From positions 52,686 through 116,685 of the forward strand of contig DATANV010000015.1 in assembly GCA_036266075.1 (NCBI GenBank): a stretch of DNA of 64,000 bases, read 5' to 3'. Each line of letters begins with the position of its first letter. The stretch's first letter is position 1. The translations under genes and the position numbers were made by a program. This document shows, in pieces, positions 11,125-37,165 of the stretch. The stretch is from Solirubrobacterales bacterium (GTDB lineage Bacteria > Actinomycetota > Thermoleophilia > Solirubrobacterales > 70-9). The notes under the pieces were generated by a model that saw only the letters and a list, made by a program, of their open reading frames with translations, made no database searches and was not told the DNA's origin.

Positions 11125-12192
11125 ATGGGAGTGAACGGAACTCGATTGGCCACGACGGTTGTCCTGGTTGTCGGGGGCGCGGCCGTTTTCGTCCCGGGTG
11201 GCATGGCCTGGGCGGCGACCGCGACCTATCCGGCTGGGGGTAGCGGCTTCCAGGAAGACGCGGAAGGATGGAGCGTCGGCGGAGCGTCCTGCACCCCGGC
11301 CGAATTGCTCTGCTCATCTGCAGGCGTCTACGACATGACGGCTGGTAACCCGCCGGGGTCGATCGCCGCCAACACGACGGCGACGGTCAACCTCGTCGCT
11401 CTCTTCAAAGGAGCCGTCTCCTGGGTCTCGCCGCAGTTCACGATTCCCGTCGAGGCGATCACCGGGGCGGAACTGCACCTCGAACGCGCCTTCGATCCCG
11501 GCGGCCTGATCGACGTCGAACCGGTTGCCACCTACGACGTCGTGCTGGAAGACATCACCGCCGGCAGCTCGACCACCGCGCTGAGTGGCGAAGCAGACGA
11601 AGGGGACGAAGCCTTCGCGGGGAACGGCGCTCCCGTTGCGGTTGTGGCCGGCCACAACTACCGGCTGGCGATCGAATCGACGACGGTGCAGAGCACGCTG
11701 TCGCTCACGCCGCTGGGCGGCACCACCAGCCTCCGCTTCGACAACGTCGGGCTGAGCGTACAGTCGTCCGAACCCGCCTCGGGTGGAGGTGGAGGGGGCG
11801 GCGACGGAGGGAACGGCGATGGCACGAGCGCCGCTGCAGGGTCCGCGGGCACGCTGAGCTCAGAGGAGCTGCTGGCGTCCGTACGGCGCGAGGATCAAGC
11901 CTTGGCCGAGCTTCGCGCCCGCCGGGTCTTCGTCCGGGTCGGGTGTCCGCACCGTGCCCGGCGGTCGTGCCGGATCACCGTGCAAGGGGCGATCCGCAAG
12001 CACGTCCGGGTCACCCGGCGCACGACGGTCAAGGTCGCCAGCGGGAAGCGGCGTTTGGTCGGGCTCTGGGTCAAACCGCGCTTCCGCGACAAGGTTGCTG
12101 TCCGCAGACGCCTGCTGATCGTGCAGAAGGTCCGCGTCGGAAGCGTGACCGCTAGATTCGCCCGCAGCCGCGCGCTGGTGCGGCGCGGCTGA
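11125..12192 (+). CDS. Secreted hypothetical protein with basic beta-rich C-terminal module
   Basis: RBS GAGAGGAG lies before the ATG at 11125. Signal peptide ...GGMAWAATA. Contains a Gly-rich linker and an Arg/Lys-rich C-terminal ~95 aa. Confidence 0.7.
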   Translation: MGVNGTRLATTVVLVVGGAAVFVPGGMAWAATATYPAGGSGFQEDAEGWSVGGASCTPAELLCSSAGVYDMTAGNPPGSIAANTTATVNLVALFKGAVSWVSPQFTIPVEAITGAELHLERAFDPGGLIDVEPVATYDVVLEDITAGSSTTALSGEADEGDEAFAGNGAPVAVVAGHNYRLAIESTTVQSTLSLTPLGGTTSLRFDNVGLSVQSSEPASGGGGGGGDGGNGDGTSAAAGSAGTLSSEELLASVRREDQALAELRARRVFVRVGCPHRARRSCRITVQGAIRKHVRVTRRTTVKVASGKRRLVGLWVKPRFRDKVAVRRRLLIVQKVRVGSVTARFARSRALVRRG

Positions 12193-24307: not shown

Positions 24308-26197
24308 ATGACTCGGATGAGCCATATTCACAGTGTGCCTCGAAGAGGTGCGCACGGCGGCATGGCGGGATTGGTCGCCATCGCGGTGGCCGCGCTGGCG
24401 GCGATCGTTATGGCGCCTGCCGCCCAGGCCGAATTCAGCCTCGCCAAATGCGAGGGCACCAACATCACCGGCGAAGGCGCCTCTTTCCAGAAAGAAGCGC
24501 AGGAACTCTTCAACGAACACTTCGGTCCCGACTATTGCTTCGGCACCGGCGGCGAAGGTCTCAGCGTCACCTACAAACCGGAAGGCAGCGGCGCCGGCAT
24601 CAAAGCGGCCCAGCTGCGCGAACGGCCGGCGCGCTTCGGGGCGACCGACGACCCGCCGACCCCGGCGCAGGTCGCGATCATGAACTCGGGCGGTAAAGAA
24701 GAAGCCGGCAAAGTCGTCGCCGACACCGACCCGAATGACGATGCCAAAGTGCACGTCGTGCCGATCGCCGTCGGTGCCGTCGCGCCGTTGGTGAATCTGC
24801 CCGAGGGCTGCAACGTCGAACTGCTCAAAGACGAATACCGCACGGTTTCGAAAGCGGAAATCGAAGCGACGCCGGCCAAGAAAGGCCTGCTGCGGATCCG
24901 CATGCCGAAGACGGTGTTCGAGAAAGTCTGGGGCTTCGAAGCGGGCTTCCAGACCTGGGACACGGCCTTCCCCGAACTGGCGGCCGACAGCGACTGCCAG
25001 AAACCGATCATTCGCGTCGTCCGCTTCGACCAGTCCGGCACGACGTTTGCCTTCAAGAGCTACCTGAACGCGATCAACCCGAGCCGCAACTGGCTCACCA
25101 CCTACGCGACCGGCGCCAACGAAACCAAGGAGTGGCCCGGCGCCGAATACGGCTCGGGGGGGCAGTGCGGCGGAACCGCGGCTCCCGGCAAAGGCGCCGA
25201 TGCCACCGACCACCTGACCAGCGGTTGCGCCAACGGCAACGGCAAACTCGTGCCGGTCCTGCAGGCGACCGACGGCTCTATCGGCTATTCGGACCTGGCG
25301 ACTGCCCGCTCCCTGGGCGTGCTCGTCAACCCGGCCGGCGTCGAAGCGCCGACGACCCCCTACTGGACGCAGGTGCAGAACGGCGAAGGCAACTTCACCG
25401 AGCCGACCTTCTCGGCCACCGGTTATCAGACCGCTGGCGCGCGCGGGTCGAACTGCAAATCGGTGACCTTCACCGGCATTCCGAGCGGTGAACACGCGAC
25501 GTTCGAAGATTGGTCCAAAGCCAGCGGCGTCAACTCGCCGCAGGGCTTCGGGATCTGCACCCTGACCTACGCCCTGCTGTTCGACGACAACGCTGCCGCC
25601 TACGGCGCCAGCGGTGCCGAGGAAGCCAAGGCCCGCACGGCTAAGGACTACTTCGCGAACGTCGTCGGCGTTGGCATGCAGGGTCAGTTGTTCGGCCGCG
25701 ACTACGCCGCGCTGCCCGAATCGATCCGCCAGATCGCCCAAACCGGCGTCAACGAAATCGGCTGGAACAAGGCCAACGAAAAAGGCAACGAACCGGAAGA
25801 AACGCCGAAAGGCGGGGAGGAAAAAACGACCCCGACGCCCCCGCCTCCGGTCGCACCGCCGAGCAACGACATCACCCTCGGCCGCACGACGGTCTCCTCG
25901 AAAACCGGTTCGGCGAGCCTCTCGGTGAACCTGCCGGCTGCCGGCAAGCTAGACGTGCTCGGCACGGCAAGAGTCGGCAAAAAGAAGATCAAAGTGGGTC
26001 ATCTCGTTCTCACCGCCGCTGGCCCGGGCAACTACAAGGTGACGCTGAAGCCGAACGGCGCTGCCAAGCAGGCCCTGAGAAAAGCGGGCAAGCTGGCGGT
26101 GACGCTGACGCTCACCTTCACCCCCGACGGTGGCGCGGCGAGCACCAAGACGCAGAGCGTGATGCTGAAGCTGGCCGTCAAGAAAGGCCACGGATAG
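24308..26197 (+). CDS. Secreted PstS-family (phosphate/anion-binding PBP) protein fused to a basic C-terminal module
   Basis: Signal peptide ...APAAQA. PstS-like motifs EGSGAGIKAAQ...FGATDDPP and FDQSGTTFAFKSYL. Pro/Glu linker, then ...ASLSVNLPAAGKLDVLG...GNYKVTLKPNGAAKQALRKAGKLAVTLTLTFTPDGG. Confidence 0.75.
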   Translation: MTRMSHIHSVPRRGAHGGMAGLVAIAVAALAAIVMAPAAQAEFSLAKCEGTNITGEGASFQKEAQELFNEHFGPDYCFGTGGEGLSVTYKPEGSGAGIKAAQLRERPARFGATDDPPTPAQVAIMNSGGKEEAGKVVADTDPNDDAKVHVVPIAVGAVAPLVNLPEGCNVELLKDEYRTVSKAEIEATPAKKGLLRIRMPKTVFEKVWGFEAGFQTWDTAFPELAADSDCQKPIIRVVRFDQSGTTFAFKSYLNAINPSRNWLTTYATGANETKEWPGAEYGSGGQCGGTAAPGKGADATDHLTSGCANGNGKLVPVLQATDGSIGYSDLATARSLGVLVNPAGVEAPTTPYWTQVQNGEGNFTEPTFSATGYQTAGARGSNCKSVTFTGIPSGEHATFEDWSKASGVNSPQGFGICTLTYALLFDDNAAAYGASGAEEAKARTAKDYFANVVGVGMQGQLFGRDYAALPESIRQIAQTGVNEIGWNKANEKGNEPEETPKGGEEKTTPTPPPPVAPPSNDITLGRTTVSSKTGSASLSVNLPAAGKLDVLGTARVGKKKIKVGHLVLTAAGPGNYKVTLKPNGAAKQALRKAGKLAVTLTLTFTPDGGAASTKTQSVMLKLAVKKGHG

Positions 26198-26198
26198 C

Positions 26199-28220
26199 GT
26201 GAGCAATAGCGCCGGAAGCAGTCGGCGCCCGGCGCTGAAGAAGCCCCAGGTGGACTTCCGCGACGTCGCCCGTAGCATGGGCGGCGTCGCGGCCTCCGCC
26301 GGGCGCTGGCTCGCACGGGACCCGATCAACACGGTCCTGATCGTCGCCTCGATCGGGTTGACGATCCTCTTCTTCACCCTGCTCGGCGACATCCAGCCGA
26401 GCTCCAGCGGCACCCGGGTGCCGCTCAGTCGCGTCGAAAAGCTCGCCAAGGAAAAGCAGATCGAACTGGCGACGCTCCTCGACCAGGACTCGCGGGTCGT
26501 GGTCGACACCAAGGAAGGCCTCGAACTCTACGCCGCCTACCCGAAGTCCGATGCGGAGACCTCCAATCTTCTGAAGCAGCTGACCAGCGGCGGTGCTGTG
26601 GTCGAGATCGACCAGCAGTCCGACAAGCCGTCGAAGCAGATCATGGTCCAGTTCCTGATCCCGATCCTGCTGTTGGTCTGCCTCTTCGTGCTCTTCACCC
26701 GCCTCGGTCAGGACGCGGGAGCGGGCGCCTTCGCGGGCTTCTCGAAATTCACCGGCAAGGGCCGCAAGCGCAAGGCTGGCGCCCCCGGGCGCACGACCTT
26801 CGAAAACGTCGCCGGCGCCGGCGAAGCGGTGGCCGAGCTGCGTGAGATCCGCGACTACCTGGCCGAACCGGGCAAATACGCGAAAGTCGGCGCCCGTGCG
26901 CCGAAGGGCGTGCTGCTGGTCGGCCCCCCTGGCACCGGCAAGACGTTGCTCGCCAAGGCGACCGCCGGCGAGGCCGACGCCGCGTTCTTCTCGCTTTCCG
27001 GCTCGGACTTCGTCGAGTCGCTGGTCGGCGTCGGCGCTGCCCGCGTCCGCGACCTCTTCGCCAAAGCCCGCAAGCAGGCGCCGGCGCTGGTCTTCATCGA
27101 CGAGCTCGACGCCGCCGGGCGAAAGCGCGGCGCCGGCGTCGGCCAGGGCAACGACGAGCGCGAGCAGACGCTGAACGCGCTCCTCGTCGAGATGGACGGC
27201 TTCGGCGGCGACGCCGGCATCGTCGTCCTTGCCGCCACCAATCGCCCGGATGTCCTCGATCCGGCGCTGCTGCGCCCCGGTCGCTTCGATCGCCAGGTGA
27301 CGGTCGACGTGCCCGACGTCCACGGCCGCCTCGACATCCTCGCCTTGCACTGCGGCAACCGGCCGCTGGCGCCGGGTACCTCGCTGGAGGAGATCGCCAA
27401 GCTGACCTCGGGCTTCAGCGGTGCCGAGCTGGCCAACGTGATCAACGAGGCGGCGCTGCTGACGGTGCGCGAAGGGCGGGTCGAGATGGACCAGCCGACG
27501 CTCGAGGAGGCGATCGACCGAGTCGTTGCCGGCCCGGCCCGTAAGAGCCACGTGCTGAGCGCCGAGGAGCGCTGGGTGATCGCGATCCACGAGTCGGCGC
27601 ACGCGGTTGTCACCCGCTCGATCGGCCAGAAGGTCTCGGCCCAGAAGCTCTCGATCGTCGCCCGCGGGCGCCAGCTCGGCACCGCCGCCCACATGCTGAC
27701 CGACCGCGACGCGGTCGTTATGCAAGAGCCCGACTTGCGCCGCCACCTGATCGCGATCGTCTCCGGCTTCGCCGCCGAGCTGCTCGAGTTCGGCGTTGTC
27801 TCCAGCGGTGTCCACGACGACCTGCATGCGGCCACCGGGTTGGCGCGGCAGATGGTCACCTCCTACGGCATGTCGCCGGCACTCGGCCCGGTGACGATTG
27901 GCGAGAAAGCCGGCGAGGTTTTCCTCGGCGCCTCGCTGCAGGAGCTGGGCTCGGTCGGCCCGGCGACGCTGGAGTTGATCGACCGCGAGGTCGAGCGCCT
28001 CGTCAAGGACTCGGTCGCGCAGGCGGAGGACATCCTGCGACGCAACTGGAACGCGGTGTATGAGACCGCCAACGCACTGGTCGAGCAGGAGACGCTTTCG
28101 GGCGTCGCCCTCGACGCCGTCCTCTCGACGGTGCAGCCGACGCTGCTCTCCTTTGCCCGGGAGGAGGACGGCGAGACCGGCGAAGGCGCCGAGAGGGAGG
28201 CGCAGGCCAAGCGTGAGTAG
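26199..28220 (+). CDS. ftsH: ATP-dependent zinc metalloprotease FtsH
   Basis: Two TM segments flank a periplasmic domain. Walker A GPPGTGKT, Walker B FIDELD, SRH region, zinc site HESAHAV. The GTG start is 1 nt after the upstream stop. Confidence 0.92.
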
Positions 28221-29841
28221 ATCGGCGACACTGGCGCTCGCGTCGGTCGCCGCCATCGTTCTTGCGGCATTGGTCGCCCCCGGCATGGCGTCGGGGGCGC
28301 TGATCTGGCGCCTGGAGCAGCCGCCTCCGCCGGCGGGAGTGCCGTTCAAGGTGCCTCTGGGGGCGCCGGGAGACCTCTCCTTCTGGGCTCCCAACAGGGG
28401 CCTGCTCAGCGTCGAAGGCAACAGCACGATCCCGCGCGGCCTCTTCAGCTGGAACGGTCAGAGCTGGCATCAGCTGGCGACCGTCTGCGGCGGGCCGGGA
28501 GACACGGCGCGGATCGCCTGGGCGGGCCCCGACGAGTTCTGGGTCCTCAGCGAACCGAGCCAGCCCCGGGCCGGCTCCGGCCTGGCTCTTTGCCGCTTCA
28601 AGGATGGCCAGGTGGTGGGCTCGTGGAGCACCCGGGTCGACGCCGCCGACCCATTCCGACAGATGCGCTCGGCCGCCTGCAACGGTGCAAACGACTGTTG
28701 GTTCGGCGGGGTCGGCTCCCAGGACGCCCTGGGCGAGCGGGTCGGCGCCTTTCACCTGCACTGGAACGGCAGCACGCTGGAAACCGTCTACGGGCCTCAG
28801 GGCCGGGCGGTCAGCGACATGGAGTTCCAGGCGGGCACGCTCTACGAGAGCACCTATGTCGGCAAGGCGGCCGAAGATCGCGTCGACCCGGTCGACCTCG
28901 CTGATCCGGAGCCGGTGCCGAGCCTTATCCACACCGTCGCCGGTCACAGCTTCGCGAACGATCCCTTCCTGCCGGCGCCCCACCCGGGCGTGCCCGAAGA
29001 CGGCACCGAGCTGCTGGCTCTCGACGGCGACGGCACCGACCTCTGGGCGGTTGGCGGCGGCGCTGCCTCGGGCCCTTCGGCGCCATCCGAAGGGGCGGTC
29101 GAACGCGCGCCCCTGGCCGCTCGCCTGGTCGCTGGCTCGTTCCAGGAGCTGAGCTTGAGCGGCGACGCCACCTTCGGGCCGACCGATCGCTTCGGTGACG
29201 TCGCCGCGATGCCCGGCAGCAGCGACGCGATGGTCACCGTCGTCCCCTACGACGAGCGGCGCAGCACCAACAGCAAGGCGATCGTCGCCAGCGTCGCCGC
29301 CGACGGGACCGTCTCGACGACAACGCTGCCCGCTTCGGGTGCCGGCCGCGGCAGCGCCGCCCGGATCGCCTGCCCGGCGCCGAACGACTGCTGGCTGGCG
29401 ACCTGGGCCGGTTGGCTCTTCCACTACGGCGATGGCACTCCGCAGCCGCTCGACACCGATCCCTTCTTCGAAGGCACGATCGAGTTCCGCCCCAACGAGG
29501 CGGCCGAACAGTTCATCCCCGACGTCCTGCCCGAAGACGACTCCCAGCTCTTCGCGCCGCCGCCGGTCGAACTCGAACAGGCGGCCGAATCGAGAACCCA
29601 CGTCAAGCGCCTGCCGCCGCTGCTGCGCAACGTGCATTCGCGACTGCGGGGCCTGACGTTGATCGTCACCTTCACGGTGACCCGCCGCGCCCGCGTCCAG
29701 CTGCTCGCCAAGCGCCGTGGCAAGACCGTGGCGCGGACGCCTCAGCGCACCTTCGCGCCTGGGCACCGGCGGCTGAGCCTGCATCTGAGTCGCGACCGCT
29801 ACCCGACTAACCTCGCCTTCCGCGTGAAGGCCCTCAAGTGA
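28213..29841 (+). CDS. Secreted protein with propeller-like (Ycf48/BNR-type) repeats and basic C-terminal module
   Basis: The GTG at 28213 overlaps the ftsH stop by 8 nt. Signal peptide [29 protein letters not shown]-terminus ...LTLIVTFTVTRRARVQLLAKRRGKTVA...GHRRLSLHLSRDR. Confidence 0.7.
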   Translation: MSRSATLALASVAAIVLAALVAPGMASGALIWRLEQPPPPAGVPFKVPLGAPGDLSFWAPNRGLLSVEGNSTIPRGLFSWNGQSWHQLATVCGGPGDTARIAWAGPDEFWVLSEPSQPRAGSGLALCRFKDGQVVGSWSTRVDAADPFRQMRSAACNGANDCWFGGVGSQDALGERVGAFHLHWNGSTLETVYGPQGRAVSDMEFQAGTLYESTYVGKAAEDRVDPVDLADPEPVPSLIHTVAGHSFANDPFLPAPHPGVPEDGTELLALDGDGTDLWAVGGGAASGPSAPSEGAVERAPLAARLVAGSFQELSLSGDATFGPTDRFGDVAAMPGSSDAMVTVVPYDERRSTNSKAIVASVAADGTVSTTTLPASGAGRGSAARIACPAPNDCWLATWAGWLFHYGDGTPQPLDTDPFFEGTIEFRPNEAAEQFIPDVLPEDDSQLFAPPPVELEQAAESRTHVKRLPPLLRNVHSRLRGLTLIVTFTVTRRARVQLLAKRRGKTVARTPQRTFAPGHRRLSLHLSRDRYPTNLAFRVKALK

Positions 29842-32800
29842 GCGGACCCGGGCAGGCCGGGCGCCTGATCGGCGCCGGGCTCGCCTTCCTGCTGGCAATC
29901 GCGCTCGCCCTGGCGACGGCCACCCAGGGCAGCGGTGCCGCCGCCCCCGGCGGCGTCGGTCCGCTGCCGCTGCTCGGCGTCGCCGATGCGCAGATGAGGC
30001 TGATGGGCACGGCGTCGGGGGGCGAGGCTTGGGGCTATCGGCAGCTGCCGCTCGCAGTCGGCGGGGTCGAAGCCGGCACGCGCCAAGTCCCCTTCGGCCC
30101 CCCGCAGGACAGCTCCGGCACGTCCCTGCAGCTCGCCTTCTTGCGCTACACGGAGGGCAACGGCTGGCGGGTCTTCGAGACGCCGGTCGACCGCAACGGC
30201 AACCCCTACCGGGGACCCGTCCCCAACCCGCTTTCGGCGCGGATCACGCCAAACGGGGGAGGGGTCCTGCTGGGCCGCGACGCGCACCGGCTGCCGAGCG
30301 ACCAGGTCGTCGTCCTCGATCACGACCCGGGCGGCTCGTGGCGGGCGCTGCCGACGCCGCCGTCCTCGGTGCTGTTGCCGGCCGAAGGCGAACGGCCGGC
30401 CGAGGCGCTCGCCGCCGATCACGGCTCGGGGGCCGTCGCGGCTGCCGCCTTCGACGAAGGCGGCCACACGGGGCTCTTCTTTGCCCCCCAGGAACGCTCG
30501 GTCGCCGATGCGGTGATCCATTTCGACGGCAGCGAATGGACTCGCGAGAAGGTCAAAGTGCCGGCGGGCTCCGAATCCGAATTCCATATCCTGGCGATCG
30601 CAGCCACCGGAGCCGGCAACGCTTGGGCGATCGCCGCGGCGGCCCCGATGCTCAAACGCTCCTTCGTCCTGCTGCAGCGCACCGCCGGCCCGGAAGGTCC
30701 CGAATGGGTCGAGCGCGGGATCGGCGCCGCGCGCTTCGCCGACGCCGACACACCGGAATTCGGGATCGAAGGTCTGGCGCCGATCGGGGGCGCCGCCCAA
30801 CCCCTGACCGTCACCCAGGACGGTGTCTGGATCGACCTCACGGCGAAGTTCGAAGGCGTCTCCAGCGACGCGACGGTCTACTACGACATCGGCGCCGGCG
30901 CGGTGATCGGCTCGTGGTGCGACGCGGACGCCTGCGACGAAGCCTTCGGGGCGAAGCTCTCGCGGCAGAGTGGCTATCGCAGCTTCGCCTGGCCCGGCTC
31001 GGGCTTCGGAACGCGGATCGTCACCAATCCGCTCGAACCTGGCGGCGGCGAAGAAAGCAACCGCGGCACCTACCTGCGGTTCGACGGTGGGGCATTCGCT
31101 CGGGTCCCCGGCGGCGGCGGCAACTTCCACGCGGGCGGGGCCTTCTCGAGCGTCGACAGCGGCTGGCTCGAGGGACCGGTCGAGATCTCCGCCAAGCGCG
31201 CGCCGGAAGCGCTGCGGCCCTGGCCGGTGACCCTGCGGGCGCCGCTCGCCGACGTCACCGGCGCCCCCGGGCAGCCGCCGGGGGCGCTCGGGTCGCAGGC
31301 GCTGGCGGTGGGCGCGAACGGCGCGGTCGCCCGCTACACGCCGGGGCGCGGCTGGCGGCGCGAGTACCTGACCACCGCCAGCGGCTCGGTCAGCAAGGCG
31401 ACGCTGCGCGGCGTCGCCTGGCCCGAACCGAATCACGCCTACGCCGTCGGCGACCTCGGCGCGATGTGGCAGTGGAACGCCGACGACGGCCTCTGGATCG
31501 CCGATCCCGGCGTGCCGATCGGCTTCGAAGGCAACCTGATGGACATCGCCTTCGATCCGGCCGACGCCAGCCGCGGCTACGCCGTCGGCAAGCACGGCGT
31601 CCTGTTGCGCTTCGAAAAGAGCTGGGAACCGCAGGCGCTGCCGCCGGGCTTCGACAGCGCCGATCTGACTTCGATCGCCTTCGCCGGCCGCGAGGCGATC
31701 GTCGCCGCCGGTGGCGATCTGCTGGTCAACGAGGGGGGCGTTTGGCAGGTCGATCCCTCCGCCCAGGCGTTGCTGGACAGCGTCCGCGCCGGCAATCCGA
31801 AGCTGCTTGCCGTCGCCGGCCTGCCCGACGGCGGAGCCGTCGCCGCAGGGCGCGACATCGTCATCGAGCGCGACGGCGGGCCGGGTTCGCCCTGGCGCTT
31901 TTCCAAGCAGCCGATCCTCGGCTCGACTGCGATTGCCGCCGCCGCGGTGCGGACCGACGCCGGCGTACGGGCGATCCTCTCCGTCGTGCCCCAGCTGGCC
32001 TACCCGCCGGCCGACGAACTGCCGCCCGAAGACCCCAACGTGCCGCCGCCGATCCTGCCGCCGTTCGCCCTGCCTGGTGACGGATACGTCCTGCGCGAGA
32101 CCTTCGACGGCTGGCAGGACGAGCAGCGCACCGCCTTCGCCGGCACCGGCTCGGACCGGCCGATCAAGAGCGACCCGACGACCGCCTTCCTGCTCGACTC
32201 GGCCGGCAACGGCTGGGCGGTAGGCGGCTGGAGCGGCGACGGCGACGCCAGCGGGCGCGGCTCCTCGGCCCGCGGTGGCGAAGGCGGCGCCCTGCGGGCC
32301 CGCGTGCGAACTGCGTCGATCGCCCGCTTTGGCGACGGTGCCGCCCCGCCGCCCGTCGAGCGCTCGGCGCCGGTGGCAGTGCCCGCCGGTCCAGCCCGCT
32401 TCGCCGTCGCCGGCAACGCTCAGTGCGAGCAGCCCTGCGCCGACCTGGCGCCCGAGGCTCTCGGGCCCGACCGCACGCTGGCTGTCGCCCTCGCCATGAT
32501 CAACGCGATGCGCGGCGGTGCCGGCCCGCGAGCCCTTCTCTACACCGGGAACCGCGTCGCGACCGGCCTCGACTTCGCCGACGGCGAACGCTACGCGGCC
32601 CTGCTGGGTGGGGTGCCGGGCCTGCCCGTCTTCCCGGCGCTGGGCTCCAGCGACGTCGGCGACGGCACTGGCAGCGACGCCTTCGCAGCTTCCTTTGCCG
32701 GCTTCCCGGCGCCGCTGGGCTCCGGCGCATCGCCACCGGGGATCTCCGTCGCAGGCATCCCCGGCGCCGCGCCAGGCCCTGGCGCCCGCACCCACTACGC

Positions 32801-34277
32801 CTTCGACAGCAGCGGCGACGGCGGCACCGTACGGATCGTCGTGATCGACAACTCGCGCGGCTCGCTGGCCGCCAGCGATCCCTTCCAGAACCCGTCCGAG
32901 GCACAGCTGCCCTGGCTCGAATCGGTGCTCGCCGATGCCCGAGCCAAGGGCATCCCGGTCGTCGTGATGGGCAACCGCAGCCTCAACTCCAGCTTCACGC
33001 CGAAGCTGAACGTGGCCAGCGACGCCGGCACTGTGGCGCGGGCACTGGTCGACGGCGGCGCCTCGGCCTACCTCTTCGATCGCCCGGAAGAGAACCGGGC
33101 GATGAGCATCCCGGCCGGTGGCTCGACGACGATCCCCAGCTGGGGCACGGGCACGCTCGGTTACCGCTCGCCGATCTCCGGCGCCGTCGGCCTCGAAGCC
33201 GCCGACTCGCTGTTCGGCGACAGCGGTTTCCTGTTGCTCGAAGTGAACGCCGCCCAGCGCGACCCCGCCAGCAACCGGGCGCCGGTAGGGGTGCGGCTGG
33301 TCCCGGTGATCCAGGACCTCTCGCTGGAAGCGATCGACGGCACCCTTCTGCACCGCTCGATCCCGGCGCTGTTCAGCGGCCTCGGCCGCCGGCCGCTCGG
33401 CGGCGACCGCTGGGGCGCCGCCGCTGCGGGCTCCTCGATCCCCAGCCCGGCCGGCGGCGACCCCTACACGCTCTTCCCGCCTGAGCCCTGCCTGGTCGCC
33501 GGCTGCGCCAACCGAGTCTCGCCGGAATACAGCTTCACCTCCTCGGATCCCGATATCGCCGACTTCGTCCGCCAGGACCCGAACTCGAACAACCTGCGCA
33601 AGCCCTTCCTCGACGCCAACGGCAAGGTCGCCACCGACAACTCCTCAGGCCTGCTCTGCCCGTTCAACGCCGGCACGACGACGGTCACCGTCAGCGCCGG
33701 CGGGCTCTCCTACTCCGAACAGGTGACTGTCCAGGGCGGCAGCGTGCAGCGCCCCTGCGGCACCCGGCCGCTGCGACCTGACCGCTTCGCGCGCAACGCG
33801 CCGGCTGCCGCGCCGCCGGCGCCCCCGCCGGCTCCCGCCCCCGCCGGCAGCCCGCCGGTCGAGTTCACGCCGCCGTCGCCTCCGCCCGCCTCGCCGGCGC
33901 CCCCGCCTCCGCCTAACCCAGTCCACGTCGTTCCGAACCCGCCCCTGGCGCCCGCCTTCTTGCCGGTCACCGCGGGCCTGATCGCCACCGTGCCGGCGGC
34001 GCTGTTGCCGCCGCCGCCGCCGGTAGTGCGGCCGCTGCCGCCAGGCGGCGCCCCGGCCCGCACCTACCAGGTCGAGGAACGCCGCGAAGAGGAGGCGGCG
34101 ACCGAGGAGTCGCAGGCCTTCTCACGGCACGAGCCCGGCGGCGAGGGCGCCGCCGTGCCGCCCTACCTGCCGGCGCTCGTCCTGCTGCTGGCACTCGGCG
34201 CCGCCTCGGTCCGCGGCGGCGGCGGCCGCCGCCGCGCGGTCGCAACAGCCAACGCTGCCTCTTTCCGTCGTCGCTGA
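29838..34277 (+). CDS. 1479-aa exported multidomain protein: propeller-like repeats, degenerate metallophosphoesterase-like domain, Big_2 Ig-like domain, Pro-rich stalk, C-terminal TM anchor
   Basis: GTGA overlap with the upstream stop. Signal peptide present. The metallophosphoesterase-like region FAVAGNAQ...LLYTGNRV...PALGSSD...HYAFD...VVIDNS...QLPWLE...VVVMGNRS has ligand positions substituted. Big_2-like SFTSSDPDIADF...NAGTTTVTVSAGG. Then PPAPPPAP... and PPYLPALVLLLALGAASVRGGGGRRR. Confidence 0.75.
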   Translation: MSGPGQAGRLIGAGLAFLLAIALALATATQGSGAAAPGGVGPLPLLGVADAQMRLMGTASGGEAWGYRQLPLAVGGVEAGTRQVPFGPPQDSSGTSLQLAFLRYTEGNGWRVFETPVDRNGNPYRGPVPNPLSARITPNGGGVLLGRDAHRLPSDQVVVLDHDPGGSWRALPTPPSSVLLPAEGERPAEALAADHGSGAVAAAAFDEGGHTGLFFAPQERSVADAVIHFDGSEWTREKVKVPAGSESEFHILAIAATGAGNAWAIAAAAPMLKRSFVLLQRTAGPEGPEWVERGIGAARFADADTPEFGIEGLAPIGGAAQPLTVTQDGVWIDLTAKFEGVSSDATVYYDIGAGAVIGSWCDADACDEAFGAKLSRQSGYRSFAWPGSGFGTRIVTNPLEPGGGEESNRGTYLRFDGGAFARVPGGGGNFHAGGAFSSVDSGWLEGPVEISAKRAPEALRPWPVTLRAPLADVTGAPGQPPGALGSQALAVGANGAVARYTPGRGWRREYLTTASGSVSKATLRGVAWPEPNHAYAVGDLGAMWQWNADDGLWIADPGVPIGFEGNLMDIAFDPADASRGYAVGKHGVLLRFEKSWEPQALPPGFDSADLTSIAFAGREAIVAAGGDLLVNEGGVWQVDPSAQALLDSVRAGNPKLLAVAGLPDGGAVAAGRDIVIERDGGPGSPWRFSKQPILGSTAIAAAAVRTDAGVRAILSVVPQLAYPPADELPPEDPNVPPPILPPFALPGDGYVLRETFDGWQDEQRTAFAGTGSDRPIKSDPTTAFLLDSAGNGWAVGGWSGDGDASGRGSSARGGEGGALRARVRTASIARFGDGAAPPPVERSAPVAVPAGPARFAVAGNAQCEQPCADLAPEALGPDRTLAVALAMINAMRGGAGPRALLYTGNRVATGLDFADGERYAALLGGVPGLPVFPALGSSDVGDGTGSDAFAASFAGFPAPLGSGASPPGISVAGIPGAAPGPGARTHYAFDSSGDGGTVRIVVIDNSRGSLAASDPFQNPSEAQLPWLESVLADARAKGIPVVVMGNRSLNSSFTPKLNVASDAGTVARALVDGGASAYLFDRPEENRAMSIPAGGSTTIPSWGTGTLGYRSPISGAVGLEAADSLFGDSGFLLLEVNAAQRDPASNRAPVGVRLVPVIQDLSLEAIDGTLLHRSIPALFSGLGRRPLGGDRWGAAAAGSSIPSPAGGDPYTLFPPEPCLVAGCANRVSPEYSFTSSDPDIADFVRQDPNSNNLRKPFLDANGKVATDNSSGLLCPFNAGTTTVTVSAGGLSYSEQVTVQGGSVQRPCGTRPLRPDRFARNAPAAAPPAPPPAPAPAGSPPVEFTPPSPPPASPAPPPPPNPVHVVPNPPLAPAFLPVTAGLIATVPAALLPPPPPVVRPLPPGGAPARTYQVEERREEEAATEESQAFSRHEPGGEGAAVPPYLPALVLLLALGAASVRGGGGRRRAVATANAASFRRR

Positions 34278-35146: not shown

Positions 35147-37165
35147 CTAATGCCGGGCGAAAATCACGGCAACGGAGCCGTGGAGCCGCTTTCCGCCTCC
35201 CGCGAAGCCGACCTTGGCCCGGGCATGGAGTTCCGTGCCGCCGGCGACCTGCGCCCGCGCCTTGCCGTGCAGGCGCAGGACCAGACGCGCTTTGCCTTTG
35301 CGCCGCGGTCGGCTCCCGTCCTGCGCCAGCTTGCGTCCCTTCTTGCGGACGGTGGCCGTGAGGCGCCCGGCACCCGGCACCGAGACGGTCAGCACCACGG
35401 TCCCGTTGGCTGCCGAGCGCGCGCGCACCGACAGGCGGCGGCGGCCGAATTCTTCGATCGAGGCCGCGCCGCCGCGGCGTGCCGACGGCGGTGGGCCTTG
35501 CGCTGGCGGTTCGCTCTCGCGGGTGACGACGAAAGCATCGGGCCGGTCGTTGGCATCGCCGACGAACATGTTGGCTGCGAAGGACGAGAAGGCGATTAGC
35601 CCGGCATCGGAGGACAGCGTCATGTGCGGGTCGACGTCGCCGTTCGCGTCGCCGTCTTCAACCGAGTGGGTGACGCGTTCGACGGTATGTTCTTCGAGGT
35701 CGATCGCGTAGAGGTCGCGGACGTCGGCGATCGAGCGCGGTTCGCCGACGAGCTGCAGGACCGGCAGGGTGAAGGTCGTGCGCACGGTGGCCAGCGCCAG
35801 GTGGCGGCCATCCGCGGTCATCGCCAGTCCCTCGATCGAGGCGGCCAGCGCCGGGCTGGTCGAGGTGCCGTCGCGGGTCAGCTCGGTGGTCGCCGCCTTG
35901 CGGCTGAGGCCGGGCTTCATGCTGGTCAGGTAGAGGTCGAGGCCCGAGCCGGTGGTCACGTCCGGGCGCGGGCCGGAGCCGGTCAGGAAGGCGACGGTAT
36001 TGCCGTCGCCGCTCAGCACCGGCAGCTGCGAGGCGATGCTGGCCGGCAGCGACTCCTGGTCGGTCAGCGGCCCGTAGCAGGGGCCCGTCGAGGTCTGGTT
36101 GAAGCTCGTCGTCATCCCCGGGTTGGCCGCTTCCATCGCCGCACAGGTCGGGTCGTCGGGGTCGGCGATGCCGGTTATGCGCCGCGTCGGCGCCCCCGGT
36201 CCCGCCGCGATGCGGCGCCAGAGGTAGTAGTCCTCGCTCGCCGAGGTCGGCTCGCCGCGCAGGAAGCGCGTCTGAGCGCTTGCGTTGTCGCCGGTCCAGG
36301 CGACCGTCGTGCCGTCGGCGCTGATCGCCCCGCCGAGCGCGCCACCCGCCGGCTGTTGGGTCATCTGGCCCGTTTCGGGGTCGCGGCTGGCGGTGACGAG
36401 CGTCGTCCGCTGGGTCGCCAGGTCGCGGACGAAGAGCTGGCCGGCGGGAACGTCGGTCGTGGCCTCGGCCGGCAGGTCGGTGGGGGCGTCGGTGCGGAAG
36501 ACGACTCGGTTCCCGTCGGCGCTGATCGCCCCGCCTCGCGCGACCTCGGCGCCCGGATTGCTCCCGGGCAGCGAGACCGTTGGAGGCCCGTAGCTCGCCG
36601 GCGCTTCGCTGCCGTCGCGCGCCGAGACGAGGCGGTACGCGCACTGGCCGCCGCCGCTGCAGGCGCCGCCAGGGGGCAGCGGCAGGTTCATGTCGCGCAC
36701 GTAGGCGTCAACGTTTTCGTTGCCGTCGGCCGGGACCAGTTGCTGGGCGGTGGAGAAGGCGACGTAGCGACCGTCGCCGCTGACCGAGGGATTCGCCGCG
36801 CCGCGCCGTAGGAAGGCGTTGGTGCCTTCTTCGAAGAGGTTGCCGTCGGCGACCTTCTGTAACGCTCGAGTCCCCAGGTCGAAGCGGAAGACTCCGCCCG
36901 CGCGGTAACGGCCGGCCGGGTCGGCGTCCTCGTCGGCGAAGAAGTTGCGCGCTCGGGTCTGGAAGACGACGTAGCGCCCGTCGGCTGAGATCGCCGCAAA
37001 GCTCGTCGCGTCATCGCCCTCTTCGAGGCGGTTGTAGTCGGCGGATACCAGGAAGGCGCCGGGAACGGCGTCGAAACCGTTGTCGTAGAAGGCCGCCGCG
37101 GTCGGCGGGGTGAGGGCGCTGAGCAGGACGGCAAGCGCCAGGCCGGCCTTGCGGCGGCGCCTCAC
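35147..37165 (-). CDS. Secreted PD40/TolB-like beta-propeller repeat protein with basic C-terminal module
   Basis: Signal peptide MRRRRKAGLALAVLLSALTPPTAAA. Repeats ISADGRYVVF, VSGDGRYVAF, ISADGNRVVF, ISADGTTVAW, LSGDGNTVAF, MTADGRHLAL. C-terminus VVLTVSVPGAGRLTATV...GKARLVLRLHGKARAQV. The GTGA start overlaps the upstream stop. Confidence 0.75.
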   Translation of the reverse strand: MRRRRKAGLALAVLLSALTPPTAAAFYDNGFDAVPGAFLVSADYNRLEEGDDATSFAAISADGRYVVFQTRARNFFADEDADPAGRYRAGGVFRFDLGTRALQKVADGNLFEEGTNAFLRRGAANPSVSGDGRYVAFSTAQQLVPADGNENVDAYVRDMNLPLPPGGACSGGGQCAYRLVSARDGSEAPASYGPPTVSLPGSNPGAEVARGGAISADGNRVVFRTDAPTDLPAEATTDVPAGQLFVRDLATQRTTLVTASRDPETGQMTQQPAGGALGGAISADGTTVAWTGDNASAQTRFLRGEPTSASEDYYLWRRIAAGPGAPTRRITGIADPDDPTCAAMEAANPGMTTSFNQTSTGPCYGPLTDQESLPASIASQLPVLSGDGNTVAFLTGSGPRPDVTTGSGLDLYLTSMKPGLSRKAATTELTRDGTSTSPALAASIEGLAMTADGRHLALATVRTTFTLPVLQLVGEPRSIADVRDLYAIDLEEHTVERVTHSVEDGDANGDVDPHMTLSSDAGLIAFSSFAANMFVGDANDRPDAFVVTRESEPPAQGPPPSARRGGAASIEEFGRRRLSVRARSAANGTVVLTVSVPGAGRLTATVRKKGRKLAQDGSRPRRKGKARLVLRLHGKARAQVAGGTELHARAKVGFAGGGKRLHGSVAVIFARH

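Follow-up and report, generated by a model that had tools for sequence, protein, structure and literature searches.

Four secreted proteins with basic C-terminal ends

We analyzed the C-terminal ends of 4 secreted proteins encoded in a 64,000-nucleotide stretch of DNA (C15:52686-116685, hereafter the window) from a Solirubrobacterales genome of 2.49 Mb, which is assembled in 38 contigs, has approximately 70% G+C, and is 94.5% complete. Solirubrobacterales are abundant in soil and have few cultured members. An earlier note on this DNA had proposed that the 4 proteins, otherwise unrelated, end in the same basic, β-strand-rich module and that this module could anchor them to the cell envelope. 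All 4 tail sequences quoted there were found exactly at the positions it gave, and the 4 genes are judged to be real because each has conserved orthologues. Hereafter, T1 denotes the tail of P0001, T2 that of P0002, T3 that of P0003/P0186, and T4 that of P0004. The proteins and their parts, with immunoglobulin abbreviated as Ig, amino acids as aa, and hidden Markov model as HMM, are the following:

11125..12192, + strand: P0004, a secreted protein consisting of a signal peptide, a head of ~200 aa, a Gly-rich linker, and a tail (translation; five orthologues aligned)
11899..12189, + strand: T4, a Cys-pair (CPxxxxxxC) polycationic tail, net charge +29, member of a second tail family that is probably distantly related to the main family
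24308..26197, + strand: P0001, a PstS-like (PBP_like_2) secreted protein of 629 aa (translation; Pfam PF12849 at 8.6e-12)
25775..25864, + strand: acidic, Pro-rich linker of P0001 (NEKGNEPEETPKGGEEKTTPTPPPPVAPPS) that joins the binding-protein fold to the tail (read from the translation)
25865..26194, + strand: T1, a polycationic Ig-like domain of the main family, Lys-rich type (K15, R3, net charge +15; HMM E=1e-34; AlphaFold2)
28213..29841, + strand: P0003/P0186, a highly conserved secreted protein of the FtsH operon, 542 aa, with no family match (translation)
29596..29838, + strand: T3, a basic (+20), β-strand-patterned C-terminal extension specific to the P0003 orthologue family (8.6 bits against the main-family HMM)
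35147..37165, - strand: P0002, a secreted PD40/TolB-like propeller protein of 672 aa (PF07676 at 9.8e-7)
35150..35461, - strand: T2, a polycationic Ig-like domain of the main family, Arg-rich type (R17, K8, net charge +21; profile matches and Smith-Waterman)

Reading the translations by eye confirmed a Sec-type signal peptide at the N-terminus of all 4 proteins, and each of them ends in a basic segment with a β-strand pattern located behind a Pro- or Gly-rich linker. The net charges of the tails are those listed above, and the remainder of each protein is acidic (-3 to -20). The signal peptide of P0001 ends in …APAAQA/EF and lacks a lipobox; TIGR00975 scores this protein at 70 bits, which is under the cut-off of that model. 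The tail is kept in all 30 orthologues of P0001, and none of them has a lipobox either. P0003 has 135 orthologues, 40 of which were aligned and are 69% to 83% identical to it. P0004 has no match in Pfam or NCBIfam, its head included.

Relationships among the tails

To compare the tails with each other, we used Smith-Waterman alignment with 500 shuffles as control. The T1–T2 pair gave z=4.7, a score reached by 1 of the 500 shuffles, and the T2–T3 pair z=4.2; T1–T3 and every pair containing T4 were at noise level. A phmmer search with T1 against the six-frame open reading frames (ORFs) of the same genome detected 2 further tails, C33:130066-130455 (1.1e-7) and C24:7823-8140 (3.3e-3), which align well with T1 and T2. 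The protein bearing the C24 tail has ~680 aa, near P0002 in length, and gives no Pfam match. A profile made from these 4 tails (T1, T2, and those on contigs C33 and C24) was searched against 1.84 billion representative proteins and matched 3,905 cluster representatives at E≤1e-3, 345 of them at E≤1e-10. We then built an HMM from the best 149 of the 3,905 matches (the main-family HMM), which detected the C33 tail at 1e-38, T1 at 1e-34, the C24 tail at 7e-24, and T2 at 1.6e-13; the same HMM gave 0.009 for a candidate on contig C38 and 8.6 bits for T3, and did not detect T4 (0.2 bits). To exclude circularity, a profile was built without T2. Among 19,141 six-frame ORFs of at least 70 residues, this profile recovered T2 at E=8.6e-4, and at 9.7e-13 after one iteration, and a profile from 6 tails of 3 other genomes found T1 at 2.2e-14. 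Because the T2-free and the other-genome profiles recover them, T1 and T2 are true members of one family. On these sequence comparisons, T1, T2, and the C33 and C24 tails are copies of one uncatalogued domain.

The C38 candidate lies on a protein of 1,372 aa (L003, G000:C38:53459-57574, + strand) that contains a HELGHTLGLEH zinc-protease motif; an extended Gly-rich region and 2 repeats resembling fibronectin were recognized by eye. With the tail HMM, the last 105 residues of this protein give only a weak match (E=0.009 to 2.4), and its end may be a fifth, divergent copy.

The T4 tail is conserved in five orthologues. When T4 and these orthologues alone (6 sequences) were aligned with the main family, hhalign reported composition only, because 33 of 60 column shuffles reached the same score. 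T4-like tails are present in 7 of the 121 genomes of the order, 5 of them in a single genome, on frames of 345 to 869 aa, and a CPxxxxxxC hairpin common to them occupies the position of VPGPG in the main family. The Cys-pair profile widened to 16 sequences aligned with the main family over 93 collinear columns with an hhalign score of 18.0, which was reached by none of 60 column-shuffled controls (mean 8.6, standard deviation 1.4, maximum 12.3; z about 6.7). One tail, L029, bridges both groups (2e-8 with the T4 HMM and 18.3 bits with the main HMM); when it was left out of the Cys-pair profile, the score was 16.4, still reached by 0 of 60 shuffles. hhalign's own figures for the 18.0 alignment are a probability of 3% and E=0.014. 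The AlphaFold2 model of T4 (predicted local distance difference test, pLDDT, 82) comprises strands A to E, a helix, and strands F and G, and comparing the T1 and T4 models by the order of their elements showed the same order in both. This suggests that T4, a member of a Cys-pair sister subfamily, is probably homologous to the main family at a distance, although short of proof because the probability assigned by hhalign itself is only 3%. A shared head as the cause of the shared tail was considered and rejected, since BLASTP found no similarity between the head of P0004 and that of the C33 protein.

T3 is a marginal case. Besides its 8.6 bits with the main HMM, hhalign gave E=0.022 against the main family, and in a re-run a score of 16.4 over 51 columns that was reached by 2 of 60 shuffles; against the Cys-pair family there was no signal (11 of 60 shuffles reached the score). 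T3 occurs only in the family of P0003 orthologues (n=135), which are proteins of ~540 aa. As read from its sequence, it is shorter than the other tails and lacks both the segment with the helix between strands E and F and the TFTPTGG motif. Membership of T3 in the tail family is thus unproven by these comparisons. Altogether, the idea of one module on 4 proteins stands for T1 and T2, which are clear members, and probably for T4 as a distant relative, but is unproven for T3. Regarding the concern, raised in the earlier note itself, that the tails might resemble each other only in composition, T1 and T2 are clearly related, while for T3 the resemblance is one that shuffled columns occasionally match.

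Fold, charge, and distribution of the domain

The main-family domain is ~105 residues long and has the consensus …PSNxFxxGKxKxNxKxGTATLTVxVPGPGxL…AGTVKLTLKPSxAAKKxLKKKGKLKVKVKVTFTPTGG…VTLKxKR. An AlphaFold2 model of T1 built from 16 tails (pLDDT 89.6; predicted template modeling score 0.78) predicts an Ig-like sandwich of seven strands in which E and F are separated by a short helix. The β-sandwich-type domain that had been proposed is thus supported for T1 and T4 by confident models. We searched for known relatives with profile scans that covered the window proteins, short tail-only proteins, and long members. No family could previously be named for the tails, and this still holds: no relative emerged from Pfam, NCBIfam, or the PDB sequence profiles, the last of which gave no hit below E=0.16. 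The family members are labeled "hypothetical protein" at NCBI, and we did not find the domain described in the literature; our literature search also found nothing on the Solirubrobacterales cell surface. In Foldseek searches of PDB, T1 had no match below E=1e-3, and T1 and T4 retrieved only generic Ig-like folds, with template modeling (TM) scores of 0.45 to 0.63. The best T1 match is GbpA (PDB 2xwx, TMq 0.63), which is also among the T4 matches; the matches common to both models (GbpA, RhoGDI, Fsx1, and a pilus chaperone) are generic. The seven-strand sandwich fold is the one found in Big_1, Big_5, PKD, CARDB, choice-of-anchor D, and domains 2-3 of Vibrio cholerae GbpA. However, generic bacterial Ig-like domains usually lie inside the protein, come in repeats, and lack a polycationic charge, and the curated families stay below their cut-offs with the tails: Big_5 at 15.7 bits (cut-off 23.6; E=0.025), Big_1 at 11.8 (34.9; E=0.27), and choice_anch_D at 15.2 (45; E=0.023).

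Position, charge, and column statistics were taken from the best 149 of the 3,905 matches. The match ends at most 5 residues from the C-terminus in 133 of these 149 proteins, and the region from 20 residues before the tail to 8 residues into it is a Pro/Gly-rich linker (16% Pro and 14% Gly). The mean net charge is +20.7 per tail, compared with -5 per 100 aa in the passengers; overall, the tails described here carry +13 to +29. Lys or Arg make up at least 50% of 20 alignment columns, and Asp and Glu together account for 3.4% of residues. Outside the basic columns, conservation is seen at Gly, Pro, and residues of the hydrophobic core; no conserved aromatic or polar pocket was seen in the family alignment. 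Lys makes up 13.6% of T1 but 1.4% of the long ORFs in the genome (a background with spurious frames among it), and an enrichment of this kind at 70% G+C points to selection for charge. We did not use a background of C-terminal charge computed from all six-frame ORFs, because it was dominated by spurious Arg-rich frames. Among the 149 tails, 77 are of the Lys-rich and 39 of the Arg-rich type, and those of the PstS-like orthologues stay Lys-rich even at 70% G+C.

These data bear on the explanation that the tail has a purely structural role as an Ig-like end domain (spacer, oligomerization unit, or charge balance for the acidic passenger) without a ligand of its own, with a resemblance of T3 that may be compositional. 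The structural matches are to generic Ig-like folds only, conserved functional residues are not seen in the alignment, T3 is scarcely above its shuffled controls, and T4 with its orthologues alone gave no signal. Yet confinement to the extreme C-terminus would not be expected of a spacer, nor would the retention of ~20 Lys/Arg columns with so few acidic residues over thousands of proteins, and the Lys enrichment argues for selection on charge. We therefore regard this explanation as very unlikely.

The domains that accompany the tail are diverse and extracytoplasmic, and include PBP_like_2, propellers, PKD, trypsin, and carbohydrate-binding modules (CBM), among others. The tail goes together with signal peptides: when the N-termini were read, all 4 family copies in this genome had one. 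Of 6 frames examined in other genomes, the 5 full-length ones have a signal peptide, and the 5' end of the sixth seems to be truncated or interrupted. With a strict heuristic, a signal peptide was found on 51 of 93 database proteins; many of the remaining 42 start inside a domain, which suggests 5'-truncated gene calls. A lipobox-like pattern is present in 5 of the 93 proteins.

The occurrence of the domain also follows clades. At E≤1e-5, it is present in 66 of the 121 genomes of the order, with up to 22 copies in one genome. Among 301 sampled genomes of the phylum, matches were confined to the order and to 2 genomes of the same class, with 0 of 277 genomes matching in the other classes of Actinomycetota. 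A locus search using a tail from another genome as query returned 12 loci, all of them in metagenome-assembled genomes (MAGs) of Solirubrobacterales or Thermoleophilia; the same search with T1 alone gave no matches. The named orthologues and members are likewise from MAGs labeled "Solirubrobacterales bacterium" or "Thermoleophilia bacterium", which we take to be of soil origin from their isolate names. The domain is thus restricted to Thermoleophilia and found mainly in Solirubrobacterales. In genomes with many copies we also observed small secreted proteins of 250 to 350 aa composed of a signal peptide, a β-rich head of ~170 aa, and a tail of the Lys type; in each of the 3 stretches that were read (L004-L006; G065:C1, G112:C2, and G075:C1), 2 such proteins are adjacent.

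Possible function of the domain and its neighborhood

From architecture and charge alone, we infer that the most likely function of the domain is non-covalent, charge-based retention on the cell envelope, a reading that we hold with modest confidence. The common architecture is a signal peptide, an acidic passenger, a flexible linker, and a polycationic end domain with a predicted fold. In this proposal, the ~20 conserved Lys/Arg residues, which would face outward, and the near absence of acidic residues would give the tail its net charge of about +20, through which it would adhere to an anionic part of the monoderm envelope. Candidate partners are a wall glycopolymer attached by LCP ligases and anionic membrane lipids. 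The acidic passenger, whether a binding protein, a propeller, a protease, or a lectin-like head, would be tethered through the flexible linker, and in the PstS-like protein the tail would stand in place of the lipid anchor normally needed by monoderm substrate-binding proteins. The lack of a lipobox in P0001 and its orthologues and the rarity of lipobox-like patterns in the family (5 of 93) favor this proposal. This genome encodes 2 LCP wall-polymer ligases, and sortase (PF04203) is absent from it, at 94.5% completeness, and from 4 sampled genomes of a neighboring genus of the same family.

Several observations weigh against envelope retention. The tail structures are AlphaFold2 predictions. 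Ig-like domains are generic spacers, and the Foldseek matches are generic only. Because the profile behind the charge statistics of the best 149 matches favors Lys and Arg by itself, weaker members may be less basic. No TagF-type teichoic-acid polymerase (PF04464) was found in this genome. Moreover, the 55 of 121 genomes of the order without the domain at E≤1e-5 indicate that it is not an essential feature of the envelope. Finally, the tail does not act as a substitute for sortase: sortase is present in 91 of the 121 genomes, and tail and sortase are independent of each other (48 genomes with both, 18 with the tail only, 43 with sortase only, and 12 with neither; odds ratio 0.74, p=0.53). Wall teichoic acid was rejected as the ligand, since the genome has only LCP ligases and no TagF-type enzyme, which weakens the suggestion of the earlier note that teichoic-like polymers are bound.

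The same charge features that lead us to envelope retention would be expected if the tail served adhesion or substrate targeting to polyanions outside the cell, for instance extracellular DNA, acidic polysaccharides, polyphosphate, or the clay and humic surfaces of soil, and thus placed the proteins on particles or matrix and not on the cell's own envelope. The source organisms, environmental MAGs of uncultured Solirubrobacterales and Thermoleophilia that are presumably from soil given their isolate names, fit this possibility, as do the lectin-like or CBM-like, protease, and propeller heads, which are typical of extracellular scavenging. However, a substrate-binding protein, of which P0001 is an example, serves the cell only beside the cell's own membrane, and the tail of P0001 is kept in 30 of 30 orthologues. 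In addition, the domain lacks a conserved aromatic platform such as carbohydrate-binding modules have. Targeting to external polyanions is thus improbable.

Retention on the cell's own envelope has precedents among known basic modules. The GW modules (SH3-8, PF13457; Listeria InlB and Ami) and the Lactobacillus SLAP domain (PF03217) are basic, non-covalent C-terminal envelope modules that bind anionic polymers (PMC5817068, PMC3666127), and GW modules are SH3-like, as the SLAP domain may be too (PMC5817068). They differ from the tail family in being tandem repeats in Firmicutes, whereas the tail is a single Ig-like domain in Thermoleophilia. Using the list of known non-covalent wall-binding modules in PMC5817068, we searched the 4 proteins and the isolated tails for LysM, SLH, CWB1, CWB2, GW/SH3b, WxL, SLAP, and SPOR, and obtained no Pfam match at E≤1. 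As the tail is proposed to do, the LPXTG/sortase signals and others with a membrane helix, such as PEP-CTERM and MYXO-CTERM, act from the C-terminus to display many kinds of secreted protein on the surface. Unlike these signals, the tail is a folded domain, as predicted, without a motif, a hydrophobic helix, or any sign of covalent linkage.

A further resemblance is to the C-terminal domain of the type IX secretion system (T9SS; Por_Secre_tail) of Bacteroidota, which is also a small Ig-like sandwich (~100 aa) at the extreme C-terminus, present on many unrelated signal-peptide proteins, in many copies per genome, and in one lineage. These formal features in common raise the possibility that the tail is a sorting or secretion tag that a dedicated machinery recognizes, and perhaps cleaves or links, or that docks on the S-layer or on a protein partner. 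The family alignment agrees with this in that conservation extends beyond charge to the motifs PSNxF, VPGPG, and TFTPTGG. These motif residues are, however, Gly, Pro, and residues of the hydrophobic core, as maintenance of the fold predicts. PF18962 and TIGR04183 matched neither the tails nor the short tail-only proteins at E≤1. The tail family is polycationic and carries a helix between strands E and F; to our knowledge, T9SS C-terminal domains are not polycationic. Furthermore, the proteins have ordinary Sec signal peptides, their host is a Sec-exporting actinobacterium without a known T9SS (genes for the machinery were not searched for), and no partner gene was identified. A sorting tag is accordingly an unlikely explanation. 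By analogy, then, the T9SS C-terminal domain is the system closest to the tail in form, and basic wall-binding modules such as GW and SLAP are closest in the function proposed here. The tail family is best described as a previously undescribed Ig-like domain that would be a variant of the non-covalent surface anchor.

Extending charge-based retention from single proteins to the whole order leads to a broader and more speculative possibility, which we put forward tentatively. Solirubrobacterales may have a general surface-display system of their own, in which at least 2 related polycationic Ig-like end domains, one of the PGPG/TFTPTGG type and one of the Cys-pair type, would address thousands of unrelated secreted proteins to an anionic polymer of the envelope, including substrate-binding proteins that otherwise need a lipid anchor. 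Whether or not sortase works beside it, such a system would define the surface proteome of this abundant group of soil actinobacteria, which is almost uncultured. If this were true, one domain would mark a large part of the proteins secreted by Solirubrobacterales and would allow the surface proteome to be predicted from sequence, a new fold would be added to the short list of non-covalent anchors of monoderms, and the way in which a binding protein without a lipid anchor stays at the cell would be explained. The tail family merits a model in Pfam or NCBIfam, and the tail could be used as a display tag.

The genes around the tail-bearing proteins show other types of C-terminal end. Four tightly packed genes at 24308-34277 (+ strand) encode the PstS-like protein, an FtsH-type AAA protease (26199-28220), P0003, and a secreted protein of 1,479 aa (P0313). 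The end of P0313, at about 33900-34277 (+ strand), is rich in Pro over a long stretch, which is followed by a hydrophobic helix (PPYLPALVLLLALGAASV) and a cluster of Arg, and contains no LPXTG. This end resembles a membrane anchor or a sorting signal, and may therefore represent a different style of anchoring in the same operon. Next to P0002, a secreted protein of 679 aa (P0314, 37162-39201, - strand) ends in a basic PKD/Big-like Ig domain that has sub-threshold Pfam matches to Bact_surface_Ig-like, PKD, and Big_13 and is not detected by the tail-family HMM; it would be a further, third type of basic Ig-like C-terminus in this neighborhood.

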